Source: Amphiscolops sp. MND2022 | Taxonomy: Eukaryota | Length of the DNA stretch: 64,000 nt | Assembly: GCA_964187785.1 (NCBI GenBank) | Contig: OZ076409.1 | Coordinates: 8,000,001-8,064,000, forward strand | Direction of reading: 5' to 3' | In this document: positions 15,849 through 44,400 of the stretch, one piece after another | Layout of the letters: each line of letters opens with the position of its first letter | Position numbering within the stretch: position 1 is the first letter of the stretch | Program-made: the position numbers and the translations under genes | Notes under the pieces: model-generated | Told to the model about the DNA's origin: nothing | Databases searched by the model: none | Seen by the model: the letters and a program-made list of their open reading frames with translations, nothing else

Positions 15849-17070
15849 TTCATTTGATGAATTTAAAGAGTTAAACATCTTCAAGCCAAATTATATCAAG
15901 CCTCAATGAAACAAGCCGCTCAAAGTTTTAAAAAACCAAGTTCTTAAAATGTGTAAAGGGACACTTTCATAATGCCGGAAAATACCCGGAGATATCCATC
16001 ACGGCCGCTTTCTCTTAACTGGGAACGTCAAAAACATTTTGAAAACAGTTTCGAATTTTGTCTCTAAAAAGTCTAGAGGTGACGAAGAATGAGGTTTCAG
16101 CTCGCAAAACGCTTTTTTCAAGCCGAAACCATTTATGAAAGTTAAAGTGGTACTACCCTGCAACCAATTAAAATTTTTTACGAAACGTTTCACAATTATC
16201 GAGAAAACTCCCACCAGTTCTACAGGAACAAAAAAGTAATCAAAAGGGCACCCTCAGGACTCGAAAAAAATAGTTTTTTTTTACAGAAAACCTCAAAAAA
16301 ACATAAAATATGGAAACTTTGCTTCAACGTTTTGATTTTCAAAACTATTCTTCAAAGAAGCCCATTGTGCCGAAAAATTACTGGGCCCCCTTAATGAACT
16401 TGCTTGAACTTTTTACATGTTCTTTAAAGTTGCCATCAACTTTTTAAATGATTTTCTAAAACTCCTACGGAAACTTTAATGCGTTAATAATTCCCTGTTG
16501 TCATCAACCAACTTTTATCAAGCTGCTTGAACGTATCATCAAAGCTTTGGCGGCAATTTCCAGCCGTGAAGTTCTGCAAGTTTTATTATGCATCAGTTTT
16601 AATTTTAATAGCAGCTGAGACGTCAAAAATTTTGCCGCCATTTTACTGCAAAATAACTTCATTCACAATGTAAATAACAAACTTGCGTCATCTTCAGTGC
16701 TCTATTTGAGAAGCGTTGATTAAATCAGATGAGTAGTTGAGAAATTAAAACGTGAATACAACGTGATCCTATCCGTAAAGAAGCGGGAAATATTTTGAAA
16801 TTTAATTGCAGTAGTGGAAAATGCAGTCTAATTCTCCAAGATTAACCACCGGATGCTTCCTGAATTTTCTAGGTTTTAAAAAAATTAACCTGCGTGCAGT
16901 CCTGCAGCATGTAAGAAGTTCAAGCAGTCTCAACTAGGGCCTCTATGCCCGCAAAGCGCTGTTTCGGCTAAAAATCAAAGGGCCACAGTTGAAACTACTC
17001 CGAAAAAACTCGGTCTCACCTCTACTTTTGCAAGCATAAAAGATTTTTAGTTTAGTGGCAGACTGGAACC

Positions 17071-17470
17071 TGTGATGCCATGATGCATGTCCTCAAAGAT
17101 TCTATAAATCTGAAATACTCTGAACTCTTAACCAAAGCAATTAGTAAATGTAATCTAATTTAGAAGCTAAGAAACTTCATTTAATAGATCCTGTATCAAG
17201 CTCCCCTGATTCATCCTGTTGCTGTCAATTGTTAATTGATGTAACCTACCCTAGTTAATAGAATATATCTACTCGGAGAAATTGAGAATTCATCCTAACA
17301 ATCGGTCTTCCTCCCGCACTTCGATAACTGAGATCTCAGAAATAGATTGTACTCAGAACTAGCTAGCTACAAGATATAAGATAAGACGACTCCGCTGTTA
17401 AAATCTTAGACTTCTTATGACAGTACTAACACTCCTAAAAGAAACCACCACACAACTTTTTAACAGCTCA
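17071..17470 (+). repeat. 5' LTR (400 bp)
   Basis: TGTGATGCC...AACAGCTCA; differs from the 3' LTR at about 4 positions (3 substitutions, 1 indel, counted by eye). Confidence 0.97.
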
Positions 17471-17472
17471 AT

Positions 17473-17482
17473 TGGTGCGACC
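17473..17482 (+). promoter_or_regulatory. Primer-binding site (TGGTGCGACC), tRNA not assigned
   Basis: TGG (complement of tRNA CCA) 2 nt (AT) after the 5' LTR end. Confidence 0.7.
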
Positions 17483-18163
17483 AAGAAAATTCTTCTTTCT
17501 CTCCCATTCATTTCACACATCTACAATTGTTGTACCTCTTTCCTCGACTTTCTCATACGCTATCTCTTTGTTCGACACACAGTTTCTCCACCTCTCAATA
17601 TCGCCTATCGTTACTAACTTCAACGTTGCAACCAATTTCTATTTGAAATTGATCCGTGTTGCTATGGTTCTGACTGCGTTTCTCAACGTAATTCCTGTCA
17701 GTCATATTTCTTGGTTCTGACTACGTTTCTTGACGTAATTCCTGTCAGTAAAATTTTCGTTCCAACCACCACTGAGTGAATTTGTGTTGGCTTTCTCTCT
17801 TTCTTCCGTTCCAACCGCAGACGTGCGATACGTGTTGGCCCTTCTTCAGTGCTATCCAGCGATTCCTGCTAGTAGAAATCTCCTTGGTTCTAGCCGCTTG
17901 GATCAACTTTAAAGTTGGCACACATATATAACACATATTTTTTACATAACATAATTATAATACTTTTCTTGTTCTCTCCTCTATAGTACAAATAACATAC
18001 AAAACTCTTTTAAAACTAGCTTACGGATCCAAATACATAACAATTAATATATATAACACATACATCACATATTTCTTTATATAACTTTCATTTTTCATAC
18101 ACCTATATACAACAAATTTTTGTACAACTTCTTTGACATACTCTTAATAGAACTTTATTGTAT

Positions 18164-18545
18164 ATGCCGCCTTCAGTAGACACTATAGTTAAACTCATTG
18201 TCTGCTTTTGGTTTTTTGTTGCTATCATTGCCGGTCTTGCACTCTTTTTGGACAAATTCTTAATTTCATTCATACCAAAACTTTGTAGTACAACCTTTTT
18301 CTTCTATGTTAACAAGTATAGTACTACCTCTTTTTGGACTACTTAGTATCTACCACACTTTCCATACACTTATTCAATATATACAAAACCCATTCCTTCT
18401 TTTCATAAGTATTGCACTTACTATTTTCTTACAAGTTGTTTTCATAGATCAAATTTTACCATATAATTCACAATTCAATACAAAATATCTTCTTTTCCGA
18501 TACATCTATCCTTTATGGCAATCTTATTGTACTAATCAAACTTAA
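18164..18545 (+). pseudogene. Accessory ORF0 upstream of gag: small hydrophobic membrane protein, one frameshift
   Basis: ORFs 18158..18346 and 18306..18545 join near 18340 (WTT/LSIYH). Hydrophobic segments LIVCFWFFVAIIAGLALFL and FLLFISIALTIFLQVVFI. Stops 9 nt before the gag ATG. Confidence 0.5.
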
Positions 18546-18554
18546 TATCATATA

Positions 18555-21500
18555 ATGCTTCCCACTCCATTTACAGTCACTACTGACAAAAGACAAAATC
18601 GATCTCTTATACAAGATGTAACACCTTTTCTACAAAACATTATCTTTCAGTACACAAACCCACTTCCATTTGAAACAGAACCCCATATATTACATACTAT
18701 TCCATTAGTACGAGAACATTGTGATTCTTATCTATATTATATCCACTATAAAACACTTGATATTACACCATCACAAATCCCATTTCAAGTTATTTTTAAC
18801 CCTGTTAAAGGAATAAACCTTGGAACGTTTTATAGAACTATACACCCACAAAATATTACACTTTCTATACAAGATGTTTTTCACACATATATGCAAAAAC
18901 TCATTGAATTCAATGAAAACCAAGACACACCACCTTATCGTCCTTCTCATTTACAAGAACTAAAACACAGATCTGAATATTTCGAGGTCCCAGATCTTGA
19001 CACGAAAGTCCAACGACATGATAATCCTCATTATTGGTTACAACGAGATATCTTACAAATAAAACATTTTCAGTACAGATTCTTTAACAACATTATTCTT
19101 ACAGATGACACTATACCTCAAGTCAAATTTTTTACACAATTCCTATTAAAGTTTCTTAGATTTAACTACCAACTAATTTGGGAACAAAAAGATCAACAAG
19201 CCTATGTTAACTTCCCTCAAATATTAACACATATAGAACTCTTACCATACATCATAAAAAATGAAAACAAACATTTACATTACCGAGATCTTACTTCATT
19301 AAATGTTACACATTTTGAACAAATAAACTTAGATCACAACTTTGTACTTGAACATTCTGAAACATCAGATAACAGACCCTTTACTACACCTGATACTTCT
19401 CATGAAACAATTCCTGAAGAATAACCTAGTGTTGAACATTCATATACAAGACAACAATCAGAACAATCGGAACAAGAATCTCCAGAACAAGAAGCCCTTG
19501 GTAATCTTTTTCAAAATCCTGATCCTCCTCAAGAACAACCATCATACCCACCATTATCACAAATCTCAGATATGCAACAACCAAATCCTTCTGAAACAAA
19601 TACAATTCACAATACATCAGAATTTTCTGAAGAAACAGTACAAAATACACGAAGTTTTACAATAACCGATGATTCAAATCTTATAATAATTCCCACCCAC
19701 AATATCACACAAAATGAATTTACAAACCAAAATCAAGACAACACTTCAAATACAAACCCAGACAATACCTCTATTTTATCTACATCTAATACTAATATTA
19801 CTCAACACTCTCAGACACAAATACTATCTCCTCGAAATTATAATCCACCTTGTGTTCCACCTCAATTCTCAACTCAGATAAATACTCATGACTCCTCTCA
19901 ACAAAGCTCATCAAATACACCCTACATTGCACAAAACAATAATACAGTACATTTTCAAACACCAACTCCACCATTATCTTCTGAAATACACACTTCGACT
20001 TATACTCCAGCTCAAACCAACTCAGTACAAACTACACAACCTACCTTAAACATTAACACCATCCATTCCAACCCATCTACAAATTATACCACTGCCAGAC
20101 ATCTTTCTCCACCTCCATTACAACCTATATTAACTAACCCATTATCATACAGTCTCACCAGTACTAATCCAAGTCATACACAACAATCTCAGATAAATTA
20201 CAACACTTCCAATCCATTAAATACTCTTTCTTCTCAACATACATCCAATACAATCACTCCTACATTACAAACTTCTCAATTTCAAATACCAAATCCTCCT
20301 TAAACAACAATTAGAACTAACCCTCACTTTTATAATACTTCATCTACTTCTTTACCTAATATTTCAAATAATCCTACGTACAATACAACACCCCCATCTA
20401 CTATATCTCATAACACTATGTCACACCCAACATATATTAACTCTTCTACTTATATATCAGAACCCATTAAACCTTTTGAAGGACTCGATCACAATTATAC
20501 ACCTGAAGAATATTTACAACATATTGAGGCACGTGTTACATTTTCCTTAGGTTTACAACCTACATCGGATCATGAATATAAATTTTGGCACGCCCGTCGC
20601 ATGGCTTTCATACAATGTTCTTTAACAGGTACAGCACTAAGCTGGTACATTCGTTTAAACGACACTTATAAACATGATTGGCACGCTTTTATACAAGCTT
20701 TCAAAAAACAATTTTCTTCACAAAAGAACGCTTACTATGCTCACGTTGAAGCCCTTAATTTAACAAAAAAAGATAATGAAACAGTACGTCATTTTGCACT
20801 CAAAGTTCAACAGCTGGTTGAAAAAGGCTGGTGTAATGAGAATGCATCTACTATAAAACCTTAAATGTAATGAAATCTTTACAAAAGGACTTCCAAAAAA
20901 CCTTAAAGATTTTGCAAATAAAAGACAAGTAAAACACACCTCCACTGTTCTAGAACCTTCAATTCCTTTTCATACATTAGTAAAACTTGTTGATGCTGAA
21001 GACATAGCAAACGACAAAATCAGATCACATGATCTTGCACTTGAAATTAATAATATTACAAAACAATTGAACACTCAAACTCTTGATCACTCATCTCAAG
21101 AACAACTTATGTATACACAACCCAAAGACCCAAACAACAAAAATAAACCTGCATATAAAAATATTGCTCATATTGTCATAGAACAAATCACTCCATTTCT
21201 GCCTGTTTCAAAAAACAACGAGATGATGAAGATAAACGAGAAGCATATGCTCGAACAAAATCTCCACAAAAATCATTCGTTCAGTACTTTCGTTCTCCTT
21301 CCAATGACAGAACAAAACACTATGATAATCGATACCGAAGTCGAAGTACCTAACGAGACAACTCTTACAACAAAAAATTATTCACAAAACCGATACCGTT
21401 CTACATCTCTCGATAGAGACAGATTTCGTTACGACAAAAGTACTACTCCTCCACACTACTCTAGAGCAAGATATGATACATACAAACGTGATTCTCGATC

Positions 21501-24500
21501 TTACCGTTCTCCTTACAGATCTTCTTATAGATCCCCATATCGACAAAACTCTCGTCCTAGATACAGATCACGCTCCTATTTAAGAGATAACAAATTCACC
21601 AAGTACACAAATTCATATAGACCACCTTCAAGACCAAGAGACTCTAGATTTTCTAGATCTCGCTCACACTCCAATTCTAGAAATAAAGTCAATATGATAC
21701 AACAACAAGACCAAACTGACCCTATCAAATTTGAAGTACACATTTATCACCCAACAGCAATGGCAAATGCTGTCACACCTACAATTTGGTTTTATACACT
21801 AAATGTACACAACCTATCAAGAATAGTACAAAGAGACAACCCATCTAGATTAGAAATTGCATTCCTCCTAGATAGCGGTGCTTCCATTTCTGTACTCAAT
21901 TACCCAACATACATAACTCTTACAAAACTCCTAGATATTAGATCAAATCACACCTCTAATGTTGGACCAACTCGAAATTCCAAAACATTAACCGTTGCAA
22001 ACCAAACTGAAGTTCCTATTTTACATTATGCAAATTTAATTTTGAACACCACTATTGATGAAAACTATCGTTACTTTTCAGTACCTTTCGCAGTAGCTGA
22101 TATCAAATACAACATCCTTGGCACACCATTCTTTGAAGACAATATACAAAACATAAACATACAAGATTTTACACTCGAATTTAAATACCAATCAAAAACA
22201 CACCCAAATTATGCAAAATTCACAACACTCCTATCTAAAGATTATTCATACTTCTCTTACATTTATAGAATTAACTCAAAAACTCAGATACGTCTAAAAC
22301 CCAAATCTTCACAAATTGCACACTTTCCGATCAAAAATTATCATAATCGTCATTTTACAACCACACCACAAAACCACTTCTTTCCTTTAGTACCTCATAC
22401 CTATTTTGCTACCAAATTCCGTAAAAATTTCAATTTCATTGAAGTATTTACAGACGACAAGCCAGATATTTGTGCAACTATTATTCAGAACACTTCAAAA
22501 CATATTGCAACCCTACCTACAAGACATATTGGATACATTGAAGTTCCAATTACTAATGAAAACCCTAAATTCTTCCAAGTTAACGACATTAATACTTTAA
22601 TACATAACGTTACCCATACTTATCATCCTGATATTACTGAACCACTTCCACAGACCAACTATATTGTACAATATGATGATCCTACAACCCCTCCTCCTCC
22701 TCAATTCTCTCTACATCAAATTTATATGACAAATAACGACATTCCAAATCAAACTTCTCCTTTATATAACGTTCAGCCTACTTCTCATACTTCCGAAAAA
22801 CGCATTTTCCCTTCTCTACCATATACTTCTGAAAATCTGAAATTTATTAATAAATTTAACTTCCAATTTTCTGACCTTACAGATTCAGAATACATTACTC
22901 ATTGCAATATGTTACTCAAATATAAAACATGTTATGCAACTCATAAAAACGATGTTGGAAAACTTTCATTACCATTTCGTATACGACTTAAACTAAATGC
23001 TCAACTTATGACACAACGTCCTTCCAAAGTCCCTATCCACTACCGAGACAACCTTAACGTACTTCTCAAAGAACTCGAAAAATATAACATTATCAAACAA
23101 ATTGGTTCTTCTCCTCAAGACAAACCCGTTTATGGCACAACTAATTTAAACCCTCTTATTATAATCCCCAAGGGAGATACAATAAAATGTGTATTAGACG
23201 CTCAACATCTTAACTCCAATACAGAACAATCCGATGAATCTTGGCCTATTGAACCTCTTGCTCCACAACTAGCACGCGCAAATAAAAAGTACAAATCTGC
23301 TATTGACCATATGTATGCCTATGCACATACACCTCTTGACGAAGATACTATAAAACTTACTAGTTTCTCCTCCGGAGATAAACTTTTCGCTTTTATCCGA
23401 GGCTTTTATGGTCTCAAAGGACTACCAAACTTCTTTACAATACAAATGTCTACTTTCTTTAAAACTCTTATAGAACATGGTTTCGCTCTTGTCTACATTG
23501 ACGATATATTACTTTTATCTGATTCAAAAGAACACATGTTCCAACTCATAGAACAACTACACATTATTAGTACAAAAAACAATCTTAAACTAGCCCCTGA
23601 AAAATCCTTTTTCATGCTTCTTAAAGTCAAATTCCTTGGACATGAAATTGGTTACAATACAATTAAACCAATTCATTCAAAAATTGCAGCTATTCATAAG
23701 ATCCCTTCTCCAACTGGCAAAGTTGCCCTAATTAGTTTCATTGGCGCACTCAATTTTTACACCAAGTTTATTGAAAAACTACATATTAACCTCAAACCAT
23801 TTTACGATCTTTTACATGAGAACACTCCTTGGAAATGGACAGACGAACACGAAAGTCTATTCCAAAAACTTAAATTGTCTCTCACTTCTGAAACAGAATT
23901 AACAATACCAAATACAAAACATCCATTTTTCATTACAGTTGACGCTTCCCTTATTGGATTAGGCGCTGTCTTATTTCAATTGAATGAACAAAACAAAATG
24001 AAAGTCATATCGTACAACTCTCGTATACTTAATCCACAAGAACAAAAACTCTCCACACTTGATAGAGAACTTCTTGGTATAGTACACGCACTTCAAATCT
24101 ATGAATTTCTCATCATAGGTTCTCCCCATCCAATACACATTTTTACTGATCACAAACCTTTATTATATTGTTTTACAAAGAAAGGTAATCTCAGTCCTCG
24201 TTTCTACAGAGCTCAAATGCAATTGACAAAATTTTCAAAACTCAAAATAATTCATACTCCTGGAAAAAATCTCTCTGTTGCCGATATGTTGAGTCGCTCC
24301 TTCACAAAAGCTGAATTACAACTAAACCAATTAAAACATAAACACCTCCCACCACAAATCGATTTTGCACTTTTACAAGATAACACTCTTAAACCTGTAC
24401 ATTACTTAATAAAACATGAAGAAATTTTACCTCATCAAAAACATGACTCTCATCCAATTCCTGCTGATTATGGAACAGATCAATTCTCTATTCGTATCAA

Positions 24501-26752
24501 TGATAAAGGAAATGACATTGTTGTCAAACCGTTACAATCCTTCTCATTCAAATCCATAACTCCTTTTCAAACTAAGTTCAAGACACCTACAAAAAAGAAC
24601 AACAAAACCCTCCATCAACAATCTTTCTTACTTAATGATACTGACGTTACAAGTGATGACGAAGATCATATTTACACCAGAATTCCAAAATCTGACTCTT
24701 CTTTCTTACAAGATACAACATTACAAACAGAAAATTGTTCTACTCTTAAACAACCAACTCACACTACCTCACAAAAATCAATTTCTTCAATAAATGTACA
24801 ACCAAAATTACCATCTCTCACACACTGTCAACATATCATACCTTTCTATGATACATCATTTTTTAAGTACAAAAACTATTTTCAAGGTTTCTTCCTTCCA
24901 GATGATTACTCATTGGACATAAAAACTTTTCAACAACAACAATCCCAAGATCCGGTTCTTAGAACTGTTTATTCTTGGTTATTAAACAATGAAAAACCCG
25001 AATTTGTAACACCTCTCATCACTGGTACTCCATTTTTACATGTATATTACAAAAGATTCTCACAACTTTTCATTGACGAATCCACAAATCTTATTAGTCT
25101 AGATATTACAAACCCCACTGTTATCAACCAATCCTCTACTCCAAATTTTGTACAAGACACTATTCGTATATGCCTTCCTTTCCGACTGTTTAAAGCTGTC
25201 TTTAACAAACTCCATGAACACTCCCATACTGGTATGAAAATCACCTACAATACATTCAAACAATATTACTACATTCCATTCCTTGAAAAATGGCTTTCCA
25301 TTTTCATACATGATTGTATTGAATGTCAACGAAACAAACTTTTTGATATGAAAATTCAAACTGTTCCTACACAATCATTTTCAGAACATGCTCCATCTTT
25401 CAACTATCGAATTTCAATGGACACTAAAGGACCTATTAATCCTCCTTCTCACAACAAATCCTATATACACGTGATAATTGACGCTTTTAGTCACTTTGTT
25501 GTTACAGTACCCATCAAATCAAACAACGCAAAGACTGATATCAAAACTCTCCTACACCATTGGATTATTAAATTTGGACCACCCATATATCTTGTTCCTG
25601 ATCGTGGATCAGAATATGTTAATAAAGAAATGGCACACCTTTGCACACTTATGGGAATTCGTCATTCTCCTAGAACAGCTTACTCTCCTTGGACAAACGG
25701 CCTTGTTGAAGTACAAAACAGAAATCTTGGTACCCATTTACGAATGTTCTTACATGACATACCTAAAGATTGGGCATTCCAAGTCCATATGTACGCTTCT
25801 GCACATAATTCACAACCACTTTCAGAACTCAACATTTCACCTCAAGAAATTGTTTTCCACACCCGACCCAGAATACCCCTTACATTTGATTTGAACCTTA
25901 ACCGAGACACCTCTAAAACATGTATTTCACGATATTGCTCTCAACTTCCAGCACACTCCCATTATGATAAATCAGATTTAAACCCATTTTTCTATAAAAC
26001 ACTTTCAAAACCCATTCCACATTGGTTTCTCGCTGTAGAAACTGCTATGTTACAAATTTATTCTACAGTATACGAAAACACTCTAAGAAAAATCAATTCA
26101 CACGCCTATATTACAAAAACTTACCATGAAGGTAAACCCCTTCCTATTGGTACCTTTGTTTTAAAACGCAATTTTACACGTTCACTTTTCTGACAAACTA
26201 AAACCCCTTCGGATTGGACCATACAAAATTCTTGACAGATTATCAGACGTCACATATGAACTACTTGCACAAGATGGCTCTACAGTCCACGTCCACAGAA
26301 AACATTTAATTCCATATTATCCAAAAGAACCACTCTTAAATCCACACCTGCGTAGTTTTATGCGCTTTTCAGACACAACTCAATTTCAAATTCCACAACC
26401 TATCAAATATGCAAACAGTGATTCTTCTCCTTTTAACTCAGACGAATCGTTGTCAGAAGAAGATTCCCAAACATTTGTAACACCATCATCATTTAGTACA
26501 TCCAATCAGAATACACCATCTATAACATCCAATGACAAGTCTTTGACTCCCTCAACCAATGACAACTCCTTATATAGACATATAATTAATACCCCTCACA
26601 CTAATGTCTCTAGTGACAGATCAAGACACTCATCTAATAACCAAACAACTTCACTTCCTCCTCTAATTGACAGAACCACAAAAACTACTTATAAACTACC
26701 ACAACAACCCAAATTAGATTATAGACTTTTTATTACACCTTCAAAACTGTAA
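18555..26752 (+). pseudogene. gag-pol: gag-pol polyprotein (Gag capsid, CCHC knuckle, RS-rich region, protease, RT, RNase H, integrase with GPY), ~2700 aa, decayed
   Basis: ORFs 18555, 19572 and 20418 are in one frame. Motifs: SLTGTALSWY (gag), CSYCHRTNHSISAC (21165), LLDSGAS (PR), YIDDIL (RT), DASLIGLGAVL/TDHKPL/ADMLSR (RH), H-H-C-C and D-D-E (IN), GPY after 26178. Stops at 19422, 20301, 21351; frameshifts ~20856, ~21160, ~21372, ~26178. Confidence 0.95.
21377..26193 (+). CDS. pol: Uninterrupted pol portion (PR-RT-RH-IN)
   Basis: Part of ORF 21067..26193; catalytic motifs DSG, YIDD and IN SMDTKGP/PDRGSEY/NGLVE are present. Confidence 0.93.
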
Positions 26753-26838
26753 TCCAGTCATTCTATCCGTTGGCTCACTCAAAACTAGTCACTCCAGTTG
26801 AATGAAATATAACCCATAACAAGTTATCTCAAAGATAA

Positions 26839-28080
26839 CCTGTTGAAAACACTTCAACAATCCTGGATCCTCCCTCTGATATATCTCCATCAGCTCCAAC
26901 TATTCCTTCCCCACCTGAATCTTCAGTATCTAGCACTACAAACTCTAGTAATGTAACTCCTACTACTCCTTCTAAAAGATCAAGGTCATACATCTCTAAA
27001 ACCACCTCTTCCTCCCTTCTTCACAGACCACCTATATCTGAAATTCCTATAAACACTCGTCCTCAACAAACTTCTATTAACACTCCTATTATACATATAC
27101 CAAACCCTGAAAGTGTTGAACAATACGTAACATACAAACATCCTACAGCTATCAAAACTGTTAGACTACAACCTCAACTTAATCTTGTACAAATCCCTGA
27201 TACTGAATATACAAAGCTACCTTCACTAAAATTACCTTCAGAACTTAGCACTACTTCTTCAAAACTTTATCCACCATTAAAACCTCTTCGAAAACCCTCT
27301 ACATCACTCTCAAATCTTTTAGACAATAATACTTCAGACTACGCTCCATCACAAGACACAAGCTCACTTTTTGTACCTAAACATAGATATAATCTTCGTG
27401 ACCTTCCTTCACGTAGACTTAGTACAGACACTTCAACACTCAATTTTTCGGCTCTTTCTAGCAATTCTGCATTACGACTTGTACGACAACACGCTCAACC
27501 ATTGTCCTCTGACACACCATATTCACAACTCTTCCAATCTCCTTATTTTACTTCTGTTTTTGAAACCGCTTCACTACTCTCATCTAACCCTCAGACTGCA
27601 TTTTTATCAGGAGACCTTTTCTCACAAGTAGTAATCCCTACTCCTGTTCCTGCACATATTAGACTGCCCGAATACTATACTGCAGAACACTCTAGACCTC
27701 CAACTCCAAATTTTGCTGACTATTCACTTAGAGTCGATGGTATAACCATCTACGACCCACAAAACGATCCCCGATTTCCAATTCTTGCAGAACGTTTCAT
27801 TAACAACAACGACCTCTTATCGCACAAACGCAAAGAAACAGAACTAAAACGCCTCCAGACATCAAATCTAGAACTTAAATTTGAAGTCAAAGTCAAATTT
27901 CAAGGATTAAATCCACACCCAATATTTCACGTCTCTAAAATAGAACATAAAACCTCTCCTGCTCCTTTTGAAGTAGTACATATTGAATTTGAACGCGATC
28001 TTAATATACCCACTATCACATATGGCAACATTGTCTTCTGTAACCCATATTCCGGTCTTAAATATACATCATCTTTTTAA
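26839..28080 (+). pseudogene. Accessory ORF X between pol and env: long S/T/P-rich region plus a ~130-aa globular C-terminus
   Basis: The frame of ORF 27502..28080 is open from 26839 (~413 codons); two upstream in-frame stops at ~26803 and 26836; no ATG in the open part. Confidence 0.5.
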
Positions 28081-30736
28081 ACCCTACACAACCTTTTACA
28101 TAACACATCTCATTATTTATTTACATTTATTTAACTCTACCTTTTCCATACCCATAACACCCTCTGACACAGAAAACTATCTTCCATCGGATGACCCAAA
28201 TATTACAAATCTCATGGTTTCTCATTATGACTGTGAAAAACAACACAATCTGAGACAATTTACTCTACTCAATGTAAAACAATGCACTGAAGCTCCTTCC
28301 GACATTAAGCATGCAAGTGTTAAAGCCCGTGTATATGTCCGAGCAAAAGCTAAACGCATCAAAGCTTTTAAATGTGTTGCTTATGTAAAGAAAGAAAGGA
28401 AAATATGCTTTCAAGGTTCCGTAAAATACCGTCGTGTTGATAGAACCGTATGGAATCATAATACATTACCGCTCCCTGTTACTCTTGATCCAGTAGAATG
28501 TAAAAACATTATAAGACATTTAAATGGTACAAATGATAAGATACTGAATAACCTTCAATACAACAAAACTTTTACACTCTTAGAAGATCATTATTTTCAA
28601 GAACGTTTAGAACAATATCAAACCCTTTTCACTGTATATCAATTGAACAAAATGTATACAGGTACATTTACATTTATGCCTGCTGATAAAAACTGGATAT
28701 ATGACCCTACTCAAAACCCTTATCATAACTGTCCTGCTCATCATCAATTCGAAGTCAACTTAGTTAGTTGGCGACTAGAAATTTCTGAAGTAGAACTTAC
28801 ATATGATGACACATCTAATGACATGATAATCGATGGACATACATTACCCTGCTACTTTGCAGATGGTTTCTGTAAACCCACTACAAAAACTCCTTTTACT
28901 CTTGTTTGGTTCAATGATGATTATTGTCTAATTTTTACCTTACAAGACTTTATTGGACGTATGACTAAAATTGAAGATAGATATTGGACTGAAACAGACT
29001 CTTTTGTACATTCTCCACATCCAATAAAATCTAAAACAGCTTCTGGTATCAAAGGTACAGAACATCCCTATGTTTATGCTCCTCATACACAACATCCAAA
29101 TAATCCAAGTCTTTCAAGATTTGAAGTTTTTCCTACAGCACAAACCTTTTGTGGTAAACCAGACCCTCTTTATTCTACACAATATTCAGACCTTTTTGTT
29201 ACATACACTGATGGTTTCAATATGCATACTGGACAACCCAATCCTCATTCCATGATTGATGAATATATTTCTGGTAAAATAGTATTAGACACTTCAAATA
29301 ACAAATTTGTATTCCCTGCATTAAATGTCTCAAACAATTTTGCTACCATTGATTATGATGCACATATAAACACCAAAATCAATTATACTATTAATTATGT
29401 TTTCCGATCAATGACAGTACAAGAACTAAATACTCTTCAAACAATATGTGAACTAGAACGAAACCAACTCCTTACAATACTCGCAATGTCAGTACAAAAC
29501 CCTCAACTTGCTGGTTTCCTCTTAACCGGTAATAGAAGTAACTTCTTATACGTTGAAGGCCCAACCGCCTGGCTTTACGACTGTCCTCATTTTCTATCTC
29601 CTTTATACAAAACAGATAGATGCTTTGACCGTATACCAATACATTTTAAAGATACCTTAATGTACGTTGATCCTATTACAAGACAAACTTATGATTATGC
29701 TACACCAATTACATGTGATAATAATCCACGTAACATTATTGAACTAGATCCTGATTCAGACGATCAAGACTTTTACATTCTTGGACCTGAACCTATTAAA
29801 CGCAAACCTCCACTAATGTTTACACCTTCACAAATCAAAACTACAAAACGCCCTAATACTTTTACAGCCCAAGATGCTGGTATAAATTCAAATGCAGAAC
29901 TTGATCAATTTTGGAACCGTATTTTATTTTCTAAACATTCTGATTCTACGCTCCAATTACTAGGCAAAGCTCTTAGTTATTCCTTCATTTCATCTAATAC
30001 TCCAAATTACGATGCAGATTCCCCTCAAGACTCTGGTAATCCTTACAATACATTACGTATAGGACTCCATGATAAACTCTTGAATTTAACTCCTCTTTTT
30101 ACACCTACATGGTTTTCAGATGCTTTTATTGCACTTTTTGGATACCCTTGTTACATTCTCACACAATGTGGTATATACTTTTCTACATTTCTTTTCGTAC
30201 AATCTACTCTTACACTCATTGTAAAACTTTACAAAACAATATCTATTAAATTTAATCTAAAAAATAATATTACTTTATTTAGTTCTATAGCACATGGTTT
30301 TTTTAATGTTCTTACAGCACGAATGGTCAGTGACCTCCATGAGACTCAAAACAAAAAACCCAAAAGTACACTTTTAAAATCCAAGTCTTTAGATAATTTT
30401 ATTGACACTTCTCCAAATCTAATTAACCATTCTACATCTACAGATGTTACTTCCCCTCCACCTTTCTACACTAAACGTCCTAACAAAATTCAATTTCCTA
30501 AATTTAACTTGTTTCCGAAACGACACCACAATTCTCACCATAAAACGGCTCCACTTCCTTTCTCTCCTGTTCAACATCCTCCACTTCCTAATTATACTCA
30601 TAAAGACTTTCACTCGAATGACAATCTAACTACTCAACATGACACTTTAATTAACAATCCTGTCACTTCTACTACGGATACACCAATTAAAATCTATTCG
30701 CGGATAAACTATCCTTTTCCTCCTCCATCTTCTTGA
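28022..30736 (+). CDS. env: Envelope glycoprotein, chuvirus-like/class III fusion protein, 904 aa, intact
   Basis: Hydrophobic signal-like N-terminus; motifs HYDCEK...LLNVKQC, FKC...KICF, ICELERNQL...NPQLAGFLL...LYDC...RCFDRIPI...VDPITR...ITCD; N-glycosylation sequons; C-terminal TM (FGYPCYILTQCGIYFSTFLFV) and Pro-rich tail. Confidence 0.85.
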   Translation: MATLSSVTHIPVLNIHHLFKPYTTFYITHLIIYLHLFNSTFSIPITPSDTENYLPSDDPNITNLMVSHYDCEKQHNLRQFTLLNVKQCTEAPSDIKHASVKARVYVRAKAKRIKAFKCVAYVKKERKICFQGSVKYRRVDRTVWNHNTLPLPVTLDPVECKNIIRHLNGTNDKILNNLQYNKTFTLLEDHYFQERLEQYQTLFTVYQLNKMYTGTFTFMPADKNWIYDPTQNPYHNCPAHHQFEVNLVSWRLEISEVELTYDDTSNDMIIDGHTLPCYFADGFCKPTTKTPFTLVWFNDDYCLIFTLQDFIGRMTKIEDRYWTETDSFVHSPHPIKSKTASGIKGTEHPYVYAPHTQHPNNPSLSRFEVFPTAQTFCGKPDPLYSTQYSDLFVTYTDGFNMHTGQPNPHSMIDEYISGKIVLDTSNNKFVFPALNVSNNFATIDYDAHINTKINYTINYVFRSMTVQELNTLQTICELERNQLLTILAMSVQNPQLAGFLLTGNRSNFLYVEGPTAWLYDCPHFLSPLYKTDRCFDRIPIHFKDTLMYVDPITRQTYDYATPITCDNNPRNIIELDPDSDDQDFYILGPEPIKRKPPLMFTPSQIKTTKRPNTFTAQDAGINSNAELDQFWNRILFSKHSDSTLQLLGKALSYSFISSNTPNYDADSPQDSGNPYNTLRIGLHDKLLNLTPLFTPTWFSDAFIALFGYPCYILTQCGIYFSTFLFVQSTLTLIVKLYKTISIKFNLKNNITLFSSIAHGFFNVLTARMVSDLHETQNKKPKSTLLKSKSLDNFIDTSPNLINHSTSTDVTSPPPFYTKRPNKIQFPKFNLFPKRHHNSHHKTAPLPFSPVQHPPLPNYTHKDFHSNDNLTTQHDTLINNPVTSTTDTPIKIYSRINYPFPPPSS

Positions 30737-30795
30737 ACACTCTCTCAGTTTTTCTGTAACTCTCTTTCAGTACACTTGCCTACTATCTCTTCACA

Positions 30796-31245
30796 ATTGC
30801 TACTCCTCCACCGCTCGAAACTCTTGCAGAAGTTCATCTTCCTCAGCCCAACAATACTTCTCTAATAATAACCGTCTTCAAAAACTCTTCAACTAAAGTT
30901 GATAAATCCACTCGTTAGTGTAATTTATAGTACTTTCACTTTAAGGTGCTAAGGCCTCTTGGAATAGATAACACTGTGATTGTTGATGTTTTTAAAACAA
31001 TGACACAAGCACAAATTGACCTACAAACACAGCTTGAACAAGCAACCCCAACAGATCTTATAACTAGACCTCTTTCAAATGATTCTCCTGTTCTCTATAA
31101 TGAGACTTCAGAACAAACACCTCCAACTTTTCTTGAACCAATGGAACACACAAAAGTTGAAAACGAAAATTCAAAACCTACTCCTCCACAAGATGATACT
31201 GATCATACACAATCGACACCACCTCCTCCAAAAAAAACGATATGA
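30796..31245 (+). pseudogene. Accessory ORF Y downstream of env (~150 aa, two stops)
   Basis: The frame of ORF 30946..31245 extends upstream through two TAG codons (~30916, ~30928); acidic/Pro-rich with a PPPPKK end. Confidence 0.35.
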
Positions 31246-31249
31246 AATT

Positions 31250-32329
31250 ATGAAAGATCCAATCTTTCTTTCATCACCAATATATCCTCCTTCAATACCT
31301 TCAAAAATTTCACTTTGCACGAACCGCGACGATCATTTGATCTCAATTCTTTCTACTGACGATTTCGTCTTCAAAGCCCAGCTAACTTCTCTATATATGC
31401 ATCCTACTGACTATTCATTTCGCTTATATGACAAAAATCAAGACTTCTTCACATCCATTGCTTCCAAAATAATGGGTCCATACCAATATTGGCTCGAAAA
31501 CGGAGTTAAAATTTTCTCTCTCCAATTCAATTTTCTTTGACCTTCTATATACGATCTCAAAACAGATGAATCTGATCCATCTTTTCTCTCTATAGCACAA
31601 AAAGCTACTCATCATCAAACATATACTAAATTCCTGCAATACACGAAACCACAAAATCACATTTTTGTCAATTACAAATATATATCACCGTTCACAATGA
31701 CAAATATGTACACTCTGGACCACTCCTGTATAACAGGCTACCTTCGAAACTATGACCCTATGAAACAATACTTCTGTTTGCTTCCATACAACAATACTTC
31801 ACGCCCACCTATTGTACCTCAAGAATATCTCATACATTACGATGATTTTTTGTTGCCTTGCAACATTCCTACTCAAATTGCCAAACCTCTTACTGTTATT
31901 AAACACCTAGTATCTTCTCCACTTGACGATAAAGATAGAACGTACTATACAGCACTCTACAAGCAAACGTATTCCTACAATGAACTTCTCTTTATTTCTG
32001 CCAAAACTATCTCTTTCATGGTACAAGCTGAACAAAAAACTGAACATAAATCACACGCTTCACCCATAAAAAACGCTCCTGACAAACTTTCCTCTGTAAT
32101 AAACAATCGAACACTTCGCGACATAACAAGTTTACTTGAACCCTATAAACGAAACTCCTCTGAAACATCTATCACAACACTCACACATATACTACACTGC
32201 TACGACAGAACACACAAACTCCTTCAGACACTCGATTTAGACTCTCAACGCATCACTCAATCATCCCAAGCAATCCAATCTGCTTTGGAAACTATAACTA
32301 CTCTTTTTAACGCAACTAATCTTCATTAA
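31250..32329 (+). pseudogene. Accessory ORF Z (~359 aa, one internal TGA), unknown function
   Basis: ORFs 31079..31540 and 31697..32329 are in the same frame and the interval after TGA 31538-31540 is open; aromatic-rich globular N-part, helical C-terminus. Confidence 0.6.
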
Positions 32330-32784
32330 ACTCTTCTACAGGTAATATAAAGTTCTTAATTTTTCTTCTCTGGTACACTCTATGATACATCTGTGGCACA
32401 TTATAAAAGGTATTTTCATTTTTACCTACTTCTTTAAGGTAAATTTTTGCTTTTGAATGAAATCTCAGGACTATTTTTCAAGTACACTATTTTTTCCTAC
32501 AGTACATGTCAAAAATCTAACTATTTCTATCAAAAAAAACTACAATACAAGACATACAAGACAATATAGCACAACACTACATATGATACATTATAGCACC
32601 CAATTTTGTTGTACATCTTTGACTTGATATTGTCATTCTTCTTACACTTCCTTTGTTTTAGAAACATCCATTCTTCTTCCTCCTCCTTCCATTCTCTTTC
32701 AGAACATCTCCACTTCTCCTTTTTCGTCTTCTACAGGACTCTCTCGTCATTGCCCCCAACGCTGAAATACAAGATATAATAACA

Positions 32785-33201
32785 ATGACTTCCAGCCACT
32801 CAAAAGTTCATAGCCTAAAAGCAGCTATTTTTCACACAATGGCCTACAAACTTTCCCTGGAGATCAACAACAATAAAATAACGCCAAAATCTCTTATCGC
32901 TTTTCTGAAAGTCTTATATATTGTCGCCCAAATCAAAAAGAAACACATTACATTTGAACAATATTCAAGGATTCATGTCGCCAGACCAAAAATTGCCATT
33001 TGTGAAACGGCTTCTAACGTCGTTTTTGTGTTAAACTCGGCGTTCACGTCTAAAGACTAATATTTTCAAGCTGCCCTACACGAAGCCACAAACGCATTTA
33101 ACGAGATGCTTCATAGTTTTGGATATACCCAGAAACTCGAACACTATGATCCTCATCAACATCAGGCACACCCACCTCAACAACATCCTCTCTACAACTA
33201 A
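32785..33201 (+). pseudogene. Accessory ORF W (~138 aa, one internal TAA)
   Basis: After TAA 33058-33060 the frame continues YFQAALHEATNAFNEMLHSFGYTQKLEHY...LYN*; polypyrimidine-CAG acceptor at 32736. Confidence 0.45.
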
Positions 33202-34402
33202 AACAAAATTCTACTTACTTTTATCACTCTTCAACTCCATCTCTTCTTGAATCCATCATTCTTCTTCAATGATGTTTGAGATGTAGCTGTCGATCACTCC
33301 TTCAAAAAACTCCTACACATGCTGAAACTCTTCACTCCACCCACACACGATGGTCAACAACATCCATCTCCACTTTGGGTTCATCGACGTTGCCAAATTT
33401 TGTCCTCGTATAACTTTAATACAGTGTAATGCTATATACTCTTCCCTAATCTTTAGTGCTATATACTCTTATATACTCTTAATCTTCTGTAATCGCATTA
33501 TAATTACCCCATTATTGCAAAATCCCTTCAAAATTCTACCGATAATTATCTTTGTAACCACAATATTATCTGCTCCTATTTTCTTGTGTATAGTACAATA
33601 CCTTAATCTTATCTAATTATGTTGATACATCAATAATTCACTTCAAAAATGTTTCTCCAATACCCATCTTTTACAGAACACAAGTCCTACCTACAGTACA
33701 AGAAGCTTTCTAAGATTTTTGGACAAAAATTTTTTTCTTTTACCAAACATGTTCTACCCCTTTGTTTTAATCCCCAAAAACATTCCCAAAAACTTTCCAA
33801 ATTTTTCTTTAGAACTCTTGAAAAATGTCACTTCTAGCTTTCTAATGTTTGAAACTTGAAATTGCCAAAGTTTTTTTTTCTCAACTTTTGCCTCTGCTCT
33901 ACTCTTCACTTTCGTTGAAAATGAACTCTCACTTGAACCTTGACTTTTCGAAACTTCTTCACTTTAGGTTCACATACCCGCCAATGTTGGTTCACAGCTC
34001 ATTGACAACTTCACGCTTTAGTTCTTCAACTTGAAAAGTTTTCCATGCTGACTAACTCATGTTGATGAAAGAATTTTTTCAAACAAGCCGATGGCTGATA
34101 CGAAAAAGAAACATGAAATGATAAATAGTTGTCAACAATAACTTCAAAGAACTTGTCAGTCAAAGAAACTGAAAGAACTTGAACCTTGCCTGAACCTTTT
34201 TGCACCAATTGAATCGTCTATGACGTAAGAAGTCAAATCGTCTTAGGTTGTTCTCACTCCTTAAGTATGGTACTTTACAAAACGAAACTCATGGAACTCT
34301 AGTACAACACATATGAAACAAACCCATGCATATAACAAAAACTTCTAGAACTCCTCAAACCCAAAGTGCATATATGTAATTTATTTTAAATTCCCGGTTG
34401 AT

Positions 34403-34803
34403 TGTGATGCCATGATGCATGTCCTCAAAGATTCTATAAATCTGAAATACTCTGAACTCTTAACCAAAGCAATTAGTAAATGTAATCTAATTTAGAAGCT
34501 AAGAAACTTCATTTAATAGATCCTGTATCAAGCTCCCCTGATTCATCCTGTTGCTGTCACATTGTTAATTGATGTAACCTACCCTAGTTAATAGAATATA
34601 TCTACTCGGAGAAATTGAGAATTCATCCTAACAATCGGTCTTTCTCCCGCACTTCGATAACTGAGATCTCAGAAATTGATTGTACTCAGAACTAGCTAGC
34701 TACAAGATATAAGATAAGACGACTCCGCTGTTAAAATCTTAGACTTCTTATGTCAGTACTAACACTCCTAAAAGAAACCACCACACAACTTTTTAACAGC
34801 TCA
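34403..34803 (+). repeat. 3' LTR (401 bp)
   Basis: Direct repeat of 17071-17470, followed by the AACC TSD. Confidence 0.97.
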
Positions 34804-35312
34804 AACCAATGTGATCCTGTTTTTCAGACACCAGAAAATCCGGGGTAACTTCTCGGCCAAGAGGCAGAAGTTACACAGTTAAACTAACTTATATATTGGC
34901 TTTTAAACTAGTCAGTTGGCGGGTCTCAAAAAAGCCACTGCTATAGTCGGGTCTTTTCTTACGAACAATTCGTGAAACTTAGTTAAACATGGCCTTATAG
35001 CGTATTCAATAGAGCCGTTGTTTCAGGGAGGCATCTCCACCCTTCCTTCTTTCGCAGTGTAAGACTGAAGTGGCTGGTCCCGAAAGAGCAAAATCTTGCA
35101 GTTCCACTGCGCCTGCTTTGATGTGCATATACCCTGTCAGATTTGCAGAGAACCATTGAATCACGTGACTGATCATGAACAACAAAAGCATGTTTGTAAA
35201 TTTTTGAAGAAAAAAGAAAATTTGCTATAACCAAAATGTATACAAAATTTATAACATTGTTTGATGGAAGCCTCCTTTATTTACAGGTGGTTGTTTTCAG
35301 GACTGTTGGAGT

Positions 35313-41400: not shown

Positions 41401-44400
41401 AAAGTGACATTTATTTTGCCGAAAACGAGGAGAAAAACAGCCAAAAATGAGCGCCAAAAACAGCTTGACATGGCTGAAAAGTTTTGTTCCTACCCTCAAC
41501 CCACGAATGCTACTGCTCCCCCCACTTTCCTCGTCAGAGTCCATCCTCGGAACTTTGGCCCTGGGCGCGAGAGCTTCAAATTCGAACGATGACTCAGAGG
41601 CATCGCTTTTTCCTCCAGGGTTAATGTTGTTCATGACGTGTTCATCTCTGGAAGCATGTTGTTCAGCATCTGTTATGGACAGAGAGACGCTGGAACAAGC
41701 CTCAACTGTGCAATGGAAGTGATCGATAGAGATAAAGGGACAGGGGCCTGAAACGAATTTGTGTCGAGTTGCAAATGAACTTCGATTTACAATGTTACAA
41801 TAATTGCATTACATAGTTTATGATTGCCAGTGTTATAATAAACATTCAATACTACTTCTTTAGTATCCGATGACCTAAACCACGGTATCCAAGCACTTTT
41901 GGAGTTTTGACACCGCTAATCAGCGATCTAGCGGCGAATTAGCGGCCGCGCAGAATTTTTTCAGCGATTCTATTGGCTTTTCAAATTAGCGGCAACCAAT
42001 AGATTGCCCAAATTTGAAATTTCGTCGAAACATAACGGAGTTTCTAAGTGAATTTCGAAACATTCCAATTCTTACCTCGGCCAAACCCACACAGTATGAA
42101 AACTCTAGTCTTTTTCTTGCAAAAACTGAATAAAGATATTTTAAAAATTTTGGAATTCAAATGTTCAATAGCTTGAAGAAGAAGATTTTCAGCGAAATAT
42201 TGATTTTGAAAATAGCGGTTTAACGATTAGCGAAAAAATAAGCGATGTCAAAACTCTGCTTTGGATCTGTAGATTTGATGCTCAATCTTGAATTTTTCTA
42301 TTGAACTCGTTTCATTTTGTTTTCCATTTTCACATCTGAGAAAAGTTAAGGGTAAAGTTTTCTAACAAGTATATGCATTAGAGTGTCGAGTGTTCGGGAC
42401 ATGAGTGACGTAATGAGACAGCATCTCGGGAAGCGTCGTCTGCACTGTTGCGTCACACAGTGAGCCTTCTTTCGTCACCTGAAGTGACAATCCATTTTGA
42501 AACATGTTCTAAAGCCTAGCTCGAACCTTCGACCTTTTCAAAACATAAGGTCAACAGAAAACTTATGATCAGTTTTTGATGTTTGTCAGACTGTTTGTCA
42601 GAATTTTTCCCGATCATTTCTGTACGTTTGACAACGTTATTTTTTTTTTCCAAAATCCATTTTCTGAAAAATGAACAACCAAAAACTGTGGCAATTCCCT
42701 AACACATAGTGGTAAAACAATATTTCATCAATCAAATGCTTAAAGTTTGTTGCAGGGAGTTTTTTTACGAACATTTCGAGATATTGTACCGGAAACTTCA
42801 GAAAATGCCAAAATCTACCAAGTGTCGTCGGGTGTCCTCTATTTTTCAAAATTCCTTGTATTCTTCAAAAGATGCATAAAGTGTTTCTAAATAGAAGTTT
42901 GAAACTCCGTAAAATTTAAAGATTTCTTCGGATAACATTTTTTTCAGAATGTGCCACACATTTTTGATCAAATTTGAATCCGGAGAATGTGGGGGCCAGT
43001 TTCCAGTGATGTAAAAGCATTCTCTTGAAAAAGAAACATTGTCTTTGTTACCTGCATGGGCCGGTGCGTTGTCCTGTTGGAAAACTTGATATAGATAAAG
43101 AAAGGGAAGAACCTTCTTTTTCAAACAATCAATGTAAGCATCAGCGTTGATTTTGTTTTTGATGGGAAAAATCAACCTTTCGCCATTCGATCTGACACAT
43201 CCCCAGATCATCAGTTTTTTTGCTGGCACTTTTGAACTTTGGCGTGAATAAGTGGTGAAACCCAAACTTACGTGGTCTTCTGACATGTATTCGACGAGTA
43301 GGTCATATTTCAATCATCGTCTCGCCGACATTCCACCAGTTTAGCCCATTTCTTGTCGACTTTTGATATAATTTTGATCAGCAAAAAGTGATTCTTTTCA
43401 CCCGATTTAAGTTGGAAACATTAGGTATTTTGTTGTAAAATTCTGCCTTCAGGTTGTATTTACTTAAAATCTTGCAAACCGTGAAAGGTGCGATCAAAAC
43501 TTGTAAAATTTAAACAATTTCAGCTGTTAAAAAGGGTCTTTTTACATGTTCGAACAACGGTTTTTTCGGTAAATGCGTTACGTTTTCGTAGGCTTCCGGG
43601 CTGAATTTGCGCTGAATCGTTCTTCGTTCTAGAACTCTCCCAATAACAGGTGAAACGTTGCTTTTACGAATGCTCAATATTTTGGAAACTTGAGAAAAAC
43701 TTTTTTTTGCAAAAAAAGTAATAATATTTGCTTTATCTTCAGCGTAGGTTTGAAGCGTCTTTGGTTAAAAGAATTAGAACTTTTGTAAGAAAGCTTGTCA
43801 AATTACTTTTTGATCAATAGCTTGTTTACTTTTCCAGCTACCCTAGAGTTTGCGTTATTTGATAACATTTGCCTAGCAAATTGTTGAAGAGGTTGCAGTA
43901 TTTTAGAACGCTACTGTATTTGTATAGTTTGTTTACAAAACTGTGATTAAGAAAACGTACCCCTATGCGCTAAGCGCCATTATAAACCAATTAGAATAGC
44001 ATATTTGCTCTCACTTTTTACTTTGATTGAGTTACTCCGCATCAAGTGAAATCTCAGGTGCAGAAGGAACACTTTTGGAAAAACAGCAAAAATTCCCAAT
44101 TTTGCTCAAAATCAGCGATTTATAACTTTCTCTCTTTCTTTGCTCTAGAGAATTCAAAAAACTATAAATTAAACTAGATGAATTTCTAAGAAACTCTTAT
44201 TACTGAAGTTTTTCAAAATTCTCAATCGCTTAGAGAAAATCAAGCCTAAAAAGGCCCGGGGGACGTTTTCTTAATCACAGTACTGTGTTTTAGAATAAAC
44301 GACTTCAGATTGTCAGAACAACTAAATTTAACTAACCACTTGACAATGTGAGTGAAGTTCTTCGTCATTGCTGTGGATACAAATCAGTCTTTCGCAACCT

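Follow-up and report, generated by a model that had tools for sequence, protein, structure and literature searches.

What is the 904-codon open reading frame that stands between the long terminal repeats (LTRs) of a large retroelement in the genome of Amphiscolops sp. MND2022, and how did it come to be associated with retrotransposon genes? The locus lies within a stretch of 64,000 nucleotides (nt) of contig OZ076409.1 (assembly GCA_964187785.1, positions 8,000,001 to 8,064,000, forward strand), which is called the window here and to which all coordinates refer. An earlier note, made from the DNA sequence alone, had described the frame as a chuvirus-like class III envelope (env) gene within a Gypsy element, independently captured from an RNA virus, possibly infectious, and a candidate for a new invertebrate retrovirus lineage. 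The evidence presented below makes it very probable that the frame is the env gene of an env-carrying Ty3/Gypsy element, that is, an 'errantivirus' with a gB-type ENV in the operational sense of Chary and Hayashi (eLife 2026, PMC13524379; preprint 10.1101/2023.10.26.564294), and that its product is a Monjiviricetes or chu-like class III glycoprotein. The element belongs to a kind that has already been described. A pol of the Ty3/Gypsy type sets it apart from Anakin elements, and a class III env in place of an F-type one sets it apart from the Drosophila errantiviruses in the narrow sense.

Sequence features and predicted fold of env

The env frame extends from an ATG at 28022 to a stop codon at 30734-30736, with no internal stop in the standard code. 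Its parts are listed below, with the evidence for each in brackets; dN/dS is the ratio of non-synonymous to synonymous divergence between genomic copies.

28022..30736, + strand: env, 904-amino acid (aa) class III fusion glycoprotein (open reading frame, Pfam, model, dN/dS)
28085-28147, + strand: env signal- or anchor-like segment (hydrophobicity)
28148-30109, + strand: env ectodomain (model and sequence features)
29354-29488, + strand: env central helix (model)
30110-30241, + strand: env membrane-proximal region and transmembrane segment (hydrophobicity)
30242-30733, + strand: env proline-rich tail (composition)

The hydrophobicity profile is that of a type I membrane protein, with a moderate N-terminal hydrophobic segment at about residues 22-42, a single strong transmembrane peak at about residues 716-738 (Kyte-Doolittle values above 1.4 in the 19-residue windows starting at 716 and 718) and no fusion peptide released by cleavage; a search of env for a furin-type R-x-K/R-R site found none. 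The ectodomain contains 14 cysteines and seven N-x-S/T sequons, and 19 prolines fall within the last 124 residues of a cytoplasmic tail of about 160. The signal-like N-terminus, Cys-rich ectodomain, C-terminal transmembrane segment and Pro-rich tail named in the earlier note were all recovered. The tail also carries a PPxY-like sequence, PPFY, at residues 812-815 (30455-30466); in other viruses, motifs of the PPxY type serve as late domains for budding.

The motifs that the earlier note had given as typical of chuvirus G proteins, HYDC (residues 68-71), CELER (476-480) and YVDPITRQT (near 548-556), are present in env and are also consensus positions in an alignment of 25 relatives. The agreement goes well past what chance would give: the sole Pfam match of env is PF24664, Monjiviricetes_fusion (E 2e-22; 79.4 bits, the curated cut-off being 27), in which env residues 425-652 align with positions 289-509 of the 653-position profile, and the same domain is precomputed for 55 of 58 env homologues. 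An AlphaFold2 model made from the alignment of 25 relatives has a per-residue confidence (pLDDT) mostly of 72-90 in the ectodomain and contains a long central helix at residues 445-489. When this model was compared with BFVD by Foldseek, the top three matches were glycoproteins of Soybean thrips chu-like virus 4 (E 2.6e-27), Tacheng tick virus 4 (1.1e-26) and dermapteran chu-related virus 142 (4.3e-26). Against the PDB, 93 matches were obtained at E<=0.001, and the top matches listed were all herpesvirus gB, the best at E 5.9e-10. VIA-align superposed env on post-fusion HSV-1 gB with a Z of 11.2 and a root-mean-square deviation of 11.4 for 410 residues over model residues 60-640, and on Mokola virus G with a Z of 6.3 over 119 residues. 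The nearest clusters in the protein Atlas are PF24664 clusters of Negarnaviricota (score 0.95). A scan of viral contigs with the env alignment returned seven pattern matches, none of which was confirmed.

Because Pfam, Foldseek, VIA-align and the Atlas agree, the class III fold of env and its kinship with Monjiviricetes glycoproteins are confirmed; a closer kinship with chuviruses than with a neighbouring Monjiviricetes order is likely. The profile search and the AlphaFold and Foldseek comparison that had been suggested for this locus have thus been run, and they bear out the call of a chuvirus-like class III glycoprotein as the env of a Gypsy element.

The env gene lies within a Ty3/Gypsy element

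The LTR element that encloses env spans 17.7 kilobases (kb) on the + strand (17071-34803), and env stands downstream of a pol frame of 21109-26193. Its other features, apart from two orphan regions described further below, are as follows.

17067..17070, + strand: 5' copy of the target-site duplication (TSD), AACC (direct reading)
17071..17470, + strand: 5' LTR, 400 nt, TG...CA (direct repeat of 34403-34803)
17473..17485, + strand: primer-binding site (PBS)-like TGG... motif, 2 nt past the 5' LTR (direct reading)
18555..20303, + strand: N-terminal region of gag, long and of low complexity (open reading frame map; dN/dS 0.22-0.30 in frame against 0.9-1.5 out of frame)
20304..20864, + strand: capsid-like region of gag, Retrotrans_gag at 20607-20822 (Pfam PF03732, E 2e-09; dN/dS 0.13)
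20857..26193, + strand: pol, shifted by 1 nt from gag in the window copy only (Pfam, motifs, dN/dS 0.09-0.13)
21868-21885, + strand: pol protease (PR), DSGA (motif)
23275-23649, + strand: pol reverse transcriptase (RT), YIDD at 23494-23505 (Pfam and motif)
23836-24234, + strand: pol RNase H (Pfam)
25183-25689, + strand: integrase (IN) zinc finger and core (Pfam and motif)
26165..26752, + strand: integrase C-terminal SH3-like domain (26180-26278) and unconstrained tail (SH3_Tf2-1, E 5.9e-06; Integrase_p58_C, E 2.1e-05)
32330..34402, + strand: 3' untranslated region (UTR; copy comparison)
34403..34803, + strand: 3' LTR, 401 nt (direct repeat of the 5' LTR)
34804..34807, + strand: 3' copy of the TSD, AACC (direct reading)

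The two LTRs of the window copy start with TG, end with CA and differ by three substitutions in 400 aligned positions and by one insertion or deletion (indel) of 1 nt. With these ends, a short TSD and a PBS-like site, the element has the structure of a Ty3/Gypsy (Metaviridae) retrotransposon. A search of the window for a primer tRNA with ARAGORN and Rfam gave no match.

The protein domains lead to the same assignment. The pol product matched RVT_1 (E 3.5e-12), RT_RNaseH (4e-25), RT_RNaseH_2 (5.7e-25), Integrase_H2C2 (2.7e-08) and rve (3.2e-16), and its DSGA, YIDD, HHCC and D,D,E motifs stand in the order PR-RT-RNase H-IN, which together with the gag capsid is the Ty3/Gypsy domain set. The SH3_Tf2-1 and Integrase_p58_C scores are both slightly under their cut-offs, and Pfam returned nothing, even at E 10, for the PR region or for the bridge between RNase H and IN (317 aa, 24235-25185). 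A homologue search with pol gave 444 matches; among the 120 listed, those with names were arthropod 'K02A2.6-like' or hypothetical proteins of 29-34% identity. No Pao-type Pfam family was matched by pol, whereas the Ty3/Gypsy set was. This distinguishes the element from Anakin, a group of mosquito Pao (BEL/Pao) elements whose glycoprotein derives from a chuvirus (Dezordi et al. 2020, PMC7642597): both are LTR retroelements that have a chu-like class III glycoprotein as env and that spread by retrotransposition, but Anakin is described there with a Pao-type pol and the present element has RT_RNaseH, Integrase_H2C2, Retrotrans_gag and SH3_Tf2-1. Coordinates, LTRs, TSD and Pfam therefore agree on a complete 904-aa frame inside the LTRs and downstream of a Gypsy pol, as had been proposed.

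Selection on env in a recently mobile family

A first look at the host genome (1.07 Gb) returned 11,800 candidates for the env protein and 2,853 for the LTR, neither of which is a copy number. The best 50 env matches, a sample biased to well-kept env, were all 95-100% identical over essentially their full length, and 33 of them had no in-frame stop. The window copy and nine of the best env matches (10 copies, 45 pairs), together with one nearest relative, were then compared over the element.

In all 11 copies, the window copy included, env occupies the same site between pol and the 3' LTR. The two LTRs differ by 0.5-1.75% in the nine copies in which both are covered, and the copies differ from one another by about 4-5%. 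Perfect 4-bp TSDs, each distinct, flank eight of nine copies, and the ninth has one mismatch; the TSD of Drosophila gypsy is likewise 4 bp long. The element family has recently transposed, through integrase-type insertions, and some genomic copy may still be active, given this LTR divergence and a dN/dS near 0.1.

The env frame is intact in seven of the 10 copies, a set chosen as best env matches. Its dN/dS is 0.11 (dN 0.0147, dS 0.1395), against 1.43 and 1.45 in the two wrong frames, and the corresponding values are 0.09-0.13 in pol, 0.13 in the gag core and 0.22-0.30 in N-terminal gag. The env frame has therefore been kept by selection, and the lineages behind these insertions were selected to keep it as strongly as pol.

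Purifying selection shows that env matters to the lineages that proliferate, and not how it does so. The element could keep env for a non-infectious role, such as cell-cell fusion, intracellular particle trafficking or superinfection interference, and spread only within germ cells. The length of the cytoplasmic tail, which is unusual, and its PPxY-like motif would suit such a role, and in PMC13524379 the mechanism of transmission outside Drosophila is stated to be unknown. The parts of a fusogen have all been kept, however, namely the ectodomain fold, the conserved cysteines and the transmembrane anchor, and according to the same paper env serves soma-to-germline transfer in Drosophila gypsy, the one system tested. 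We therefore regard a purely non-infectious role as unlikely and favour env as the envelope fusogen of an env-carrying Ty3/Gypsy element.

Distant relatives and the age of the pol-env pairing

A scan of metagenome records identified seven loci with env relatives. One of them, L029 (13.2 kb), is a contig with about 75 nt in common between its two ends; encoded on it, in order, are gag (Retrotrans_gag), PR/RT/RNase H, integrase, a glycoprotein of the PF24664 family (E 7e-38) and two further open reading frames. Its identity to the window element is 30% in env, 31-34% in pol and 29.5% in the gag core. Two more env relatives, about 33% identical, lie on contigs equal in size to those of Gypsy pols that are 47-48% identical in RT, which suggests that these too have the same layout. 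The closest full-length env relatives outside the family are 27-35% identical and include proteins in a Gypsy context. Another contig of the metagenome data, L033 (6,081 nt, 45% A), encodes a PF24664 glycoprotein 26% identical to env alongside frames of 168, 316 and 497 aa, with no RT or IN and no Pfam match for these frames; instead of a retroelement, this contig may represent a segment of a genuine RNA virus.

Because the pol and env of L029 are similarly diverged from those of the window element and stand in the same gene order, the association of the two genes appears to be old. This comparison of sequences suggests that pol and env have long descended together, and it argues against a recent, independent capture, in which a Gypsy lineage would recently have taken up an exogenous chuvirus G and thereby given rise to a new retrovirus-like lineage. 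Such a capture would account for an env of Monjiviricetes type whose best structural matches among viral proteins are chu-like glycoproteins. The reverse complement of the PBS (12-mer) is also missing from the 1,513-row element table of PMC13524379, so that the family may be uncatalogued there, although this lookup was by PBS string only and the family may sit under another PBS call. A recent capture is difficult to reconcile with the gag-pol-IN-env order that L029 shares, with a pol as diverged as env, with the two further env relatives on contigs equal in length to those of Gypsy pols, and with a structural-alignment identity of only 8-15% between env and the listed viral glycoproteins. The same combination has moreover been reported in four arthropod groups: PMC13524379 describes 114 gypsy elements with a chuvirus-like glycoprotein, in Coleoptera, Hymenoptera, Polyneoptera and Hexanauplia. 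A recent capture is accordingly very improbable. The earlier claim of independent capture is not supported, in view of L029, and that of a candidate new lineage was anticipated by the gB-type env elements of Ty3/gypsy already contained in PMC13524379.

A further reading, of env as a non-retroviral endogenous viral element (EVE), would make it a fossil chuvirus G that was inserted into a Gypsy copy or next to one and is foreign to the element; it deserves almost no credence. Jingchuvirales glycoprotein EVEs of Hymenoptera and Coleoptera are indeed often flanked by Gypsy fragments, and one survey saw 'no clear evidence' that Gypsy had captured them (Dezordi et al. 2023, PMC10084718), but env here has one position in all 11 copies with distinct TSDs, is intact in seven of 10 copies at a dN/dS equal to that of pol, and recurs in the same layout in L029.

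The window copy is defective

In the window copy env is open, and gag, the integrase C-terminus and a downstream gene, ORF Y, are interrupted. Two nonsense codons lie in gag (19422-19424 and 20301-20303), and at about 20855 the pol frame is displaced by 1 nt relative to gag. Further on, two 1-nt differences, at about 21156 and 21375, together move 222 nt of pol into another frame, and a 2-nt difference at about 26176 severs the integrase SH3-like C-terminal domain from pol. ORF Y is interrupted near 31230 by a frameshift and at 31538-31540 by a nonsense codon. All five of these indels occur only in the window copy; the nine other copies, like the nearest relative (97.5-98% identical), show the alternative state. 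Of the five, four fall in runs of A, and some may be slippage or assembly errors; the three nonsense codons are substitutions.

Programmed frameshifting at 20855 was considered and is rejected: gag and pol are in one frame in all 10 other copies, one of them 97.5% identical. In the integrase tail (26546-26752) dN/dS is about 0.9, and in the copy comparison the stretch from the pol tail to 26989 evolves freely. The window copy is a defective, non-autonomous member of its family, and the earlier suggestion that the element may be infectious finds no support in a copy broken in gag, in the integrase C-terminus and in the downstream gene.

Two orphan regions beside env

Two further regions under selection adjoin env.

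26839..28080, + strand: ORF X, orphan, open frame of 413 codons without an ATG (copy comparison)
30931..32329, + strand: ORF Y, orphan, about 445-475 aa, 3' of env (copy comparison)

The first 59 nt of env are also read, in a different frame, by ORF X, which lacks an in-frame ATG in nine of 10 copies. Its dN/dS is 0.04-0.24 over 26989-28077 (nine copies). ORF X has no Pfam match, no PDB profile match below E 0.37 and no BLASTP match in loci L029-L035. It must be expressed through splicing or another non-standard route. A single, weak donor-like splice site is present at 17688 (seven of nine consensus positions, kept in nine of nine copies), and an AG behind a pyrimidine tract was spotted by eye at 26977-26978; a splice joining the two is not in phase with the nearest ATG, and no splice model is proposed.

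In five of the nine other copies ORF Y stays open as a single frame for 434-438 codons, up to where the compared stretch ends, and in the nearest copy it is a complete frame of 465 codons. An intact form with an ATG start and at least 411 aa is found in L002 (2-1234, - strand). The dN/dS of ORF Y is 0.06-0.24 over 31231-32130. In a protein collection it has 316 homologues, none of the 120 listed (58-96% identical) carrying a Pfam domain; ORF Y itself has no Pfam match below E 0.1, no Atlas match and no PDB profile match below E 0.97, and an AlphaFold2 model from an 18-sequence alignment was unusable (mean pLDDT 34.6). Two frames also follow env in L029 (9651-12095; 368 and 312 aa), with no Pfam match and no detectable similarity to ORF Y. 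When ORF Y was compared by hhalign with the post-env frames of L029 and L033, the probabilities were 0.1-0.2%. Additional genes downstream of env may be a recurrent feature of this group without being homologous to one another.

Five coding regions of the element are thus under selection: a long gag, pol, ORF X, the class III env and ORF Y. We tentatively consider, as a possibility that falls short of being likely, that this 17.7-kb Ty3/Gypsy element represents a 'complex' invertebrate retrovirus-like lineage, in which ORF X and ORF Y would be made from alternatively spliced mRNAs and would act with env in particle export or entry.

Other features of the element and its surroundings

The N-terminal extension of gag is unusually long, with about 580 codons before the capsid-like domain; T, S, N, P and Q abound in it, it matches no family, and its constraint is weaker but real. 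Within pol, an alternative frame of about 200 codons (21086-21694, + strand) is open over an Arg/Ser/Tyr-rich part in all other copies (199-254 codons); in the window copy, 222 nt of this stretch are read in another frame than in the relatives, without a stop. The open alternative frame may be an effect of composition.

In the 3' UTR about 130-245 nt near 33409 are gone from the window copy and are present in nine of nine other copies. The mean pairwise p-distance is 0.13 over 32330-33400 and 0.05 over 33410-34402.

The coding strand of the element (17071-34803) contains 10.2% G and 24.3% C, a GC skew of about -0.45, and only 4-5% of third codon positions are G. The flanks, unlike this strand, have 18% G and 18% C, and the depletion is milder in the distant relative L029 (16.5% G, skew -0.17). 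One might guess at a mutational bias of reverse transcription, or at editing by a deaminase.

Among 14 open reading frames of the flanks, the sole family match was a fragment of a DDE_3 transposase in the 3' flank (42846-43313, - strand; Pfam E 2.6e-09), which indicates another transposon remnant nearby; no host gene was recognised.

Discussion

Several observations weigh against the reading of this locus as the env gene of a Ty3/Gypsy element with a chu-like class III glycoprotein. Pairing of tRNA 3' ends with the PBS gave no match in the genome of the organism itself, against three and six for the reversed control (one pattern), and no purine-rich or polypurine tract was recognised directly before the 3' LTR. 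The confidence of the whole env model is moderate (mean pLDDT 63, predicted template-modelling score 0.36). Close behind the chu-like proteins, Foldseek placed a xinmovirus glycoprotein (2.1e-25) and a qin-related glycoprotein (3.3e-23), and the low structural-alignment identity given above applies here as well. Global TM-scores to gB are low, at 0.2-0.3; such values would be expected of a multi-domain protein modelled in another conformation, yet a clean superposition would be stronger evidence. The copies were picked by env score, by which the integrity of env is overstated, the pairwise dN/dS values are mutually non-independent, and an uninterrupted gag-pol is found in none of the 10 compared copies.

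Env-carrying elements of this kind are known. PMC13524379 describes gB-type class III env in Ty3/gypsy elements across metazoa, divides the env of 'errantiviruses' into an F-type form and an HSV/gB-type form, and reports that env and pol diverged together. The present element agrees with those described there in having gag-pol and then a class III env inside the LTRs, in its many similar copies per genome and in needing no furin site; gag, pol and a fusogen env stand within one LTR pair in multiple similar copies, which is the operational meaning of an errantivirus. The stricter usage of the same paper calls for three intact open reading frames, which neither the window copy nor any of the 10 compared copies possesses. 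The element differs from those reported in being longer, at 17.7 kb, and in its two additional selected regions. The main text of PMC13524379 makes no mention of accessory genes or splicing, nor, outside a general remark and the title of a cited work, of an 'additional ORF'. ORF X, ORF Y and the strong depletion of G go beyond this published picture.

The Drosophila errantiviruses (gypsy, ZAM, Idefix, 17.6) are also Ty3/Gypsy elements with env as a third open reading frame, which in gypsy serves cell-to-cell transfer. They differ in that their env is F-type (class I-like and furin-cleaved), whereas the present env is class III without R-x-K/R-R, so that the element falls outside the narrow genus Errantivirus; the single frame of gag and pol in 10 of 10 sister copies is a second difference. 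Sacco and colleagues are said to have reported, in 2022, nematode metaviruses with a captured RNA-virus glycoprotein.

With the G proteins of exogenous Jingchuvirales and other Monjiviricetes, env shares PF24664, the predicted fold, the conserved cysteines and a CELER...AG(Y/F)LLTGNR...DPITRQ core. Those proteins are encoded by negative-strand RNA genomes, whereas the present env lies next to RT and IN in a DNA-integrated retroelement, and it is about 200 aa longer than typical Monjiviricetes matches (598-749 aa), mainly in the cytoplasmic tail. Herpesvirus gB is the best match among solved structures, over model residues 60-640, but identity is 10-14% and env has no match to Pfam Glycoprotein_B; gB depends on gH/gL, and for env no partner of that sort could be recognised.

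By analogy with Drosophila gypsy, env would be made from a subgenomic, probably spliced, mRNA. As in class III fusogens and gypsy, the protein may then trimerise on membranes and be taken up by Gag particles. It would fuse the membranes of particle and cell, by which the element could pass between cells, for example from soma to germline, and insert new copies.

The finding gives the published class of Ty3/gypsy elements with a gB-type, chu-like env a well-preserved member that is very abundant and recently active, and it provides direct evidence from within one genome that env is selected as strongly as pol (0.11 against 0.09-0.13). The two orphan genes and a coding strand with 10% G are leads on the expression and mutation of such elements. 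The locus also counsels caution: many 'chuvirus glycoprotein EVEs', and many chu-like glycoproteins in metagenome and transcriptome data, may be the env of retroelements and not the genes or fossils of RNA viruses.

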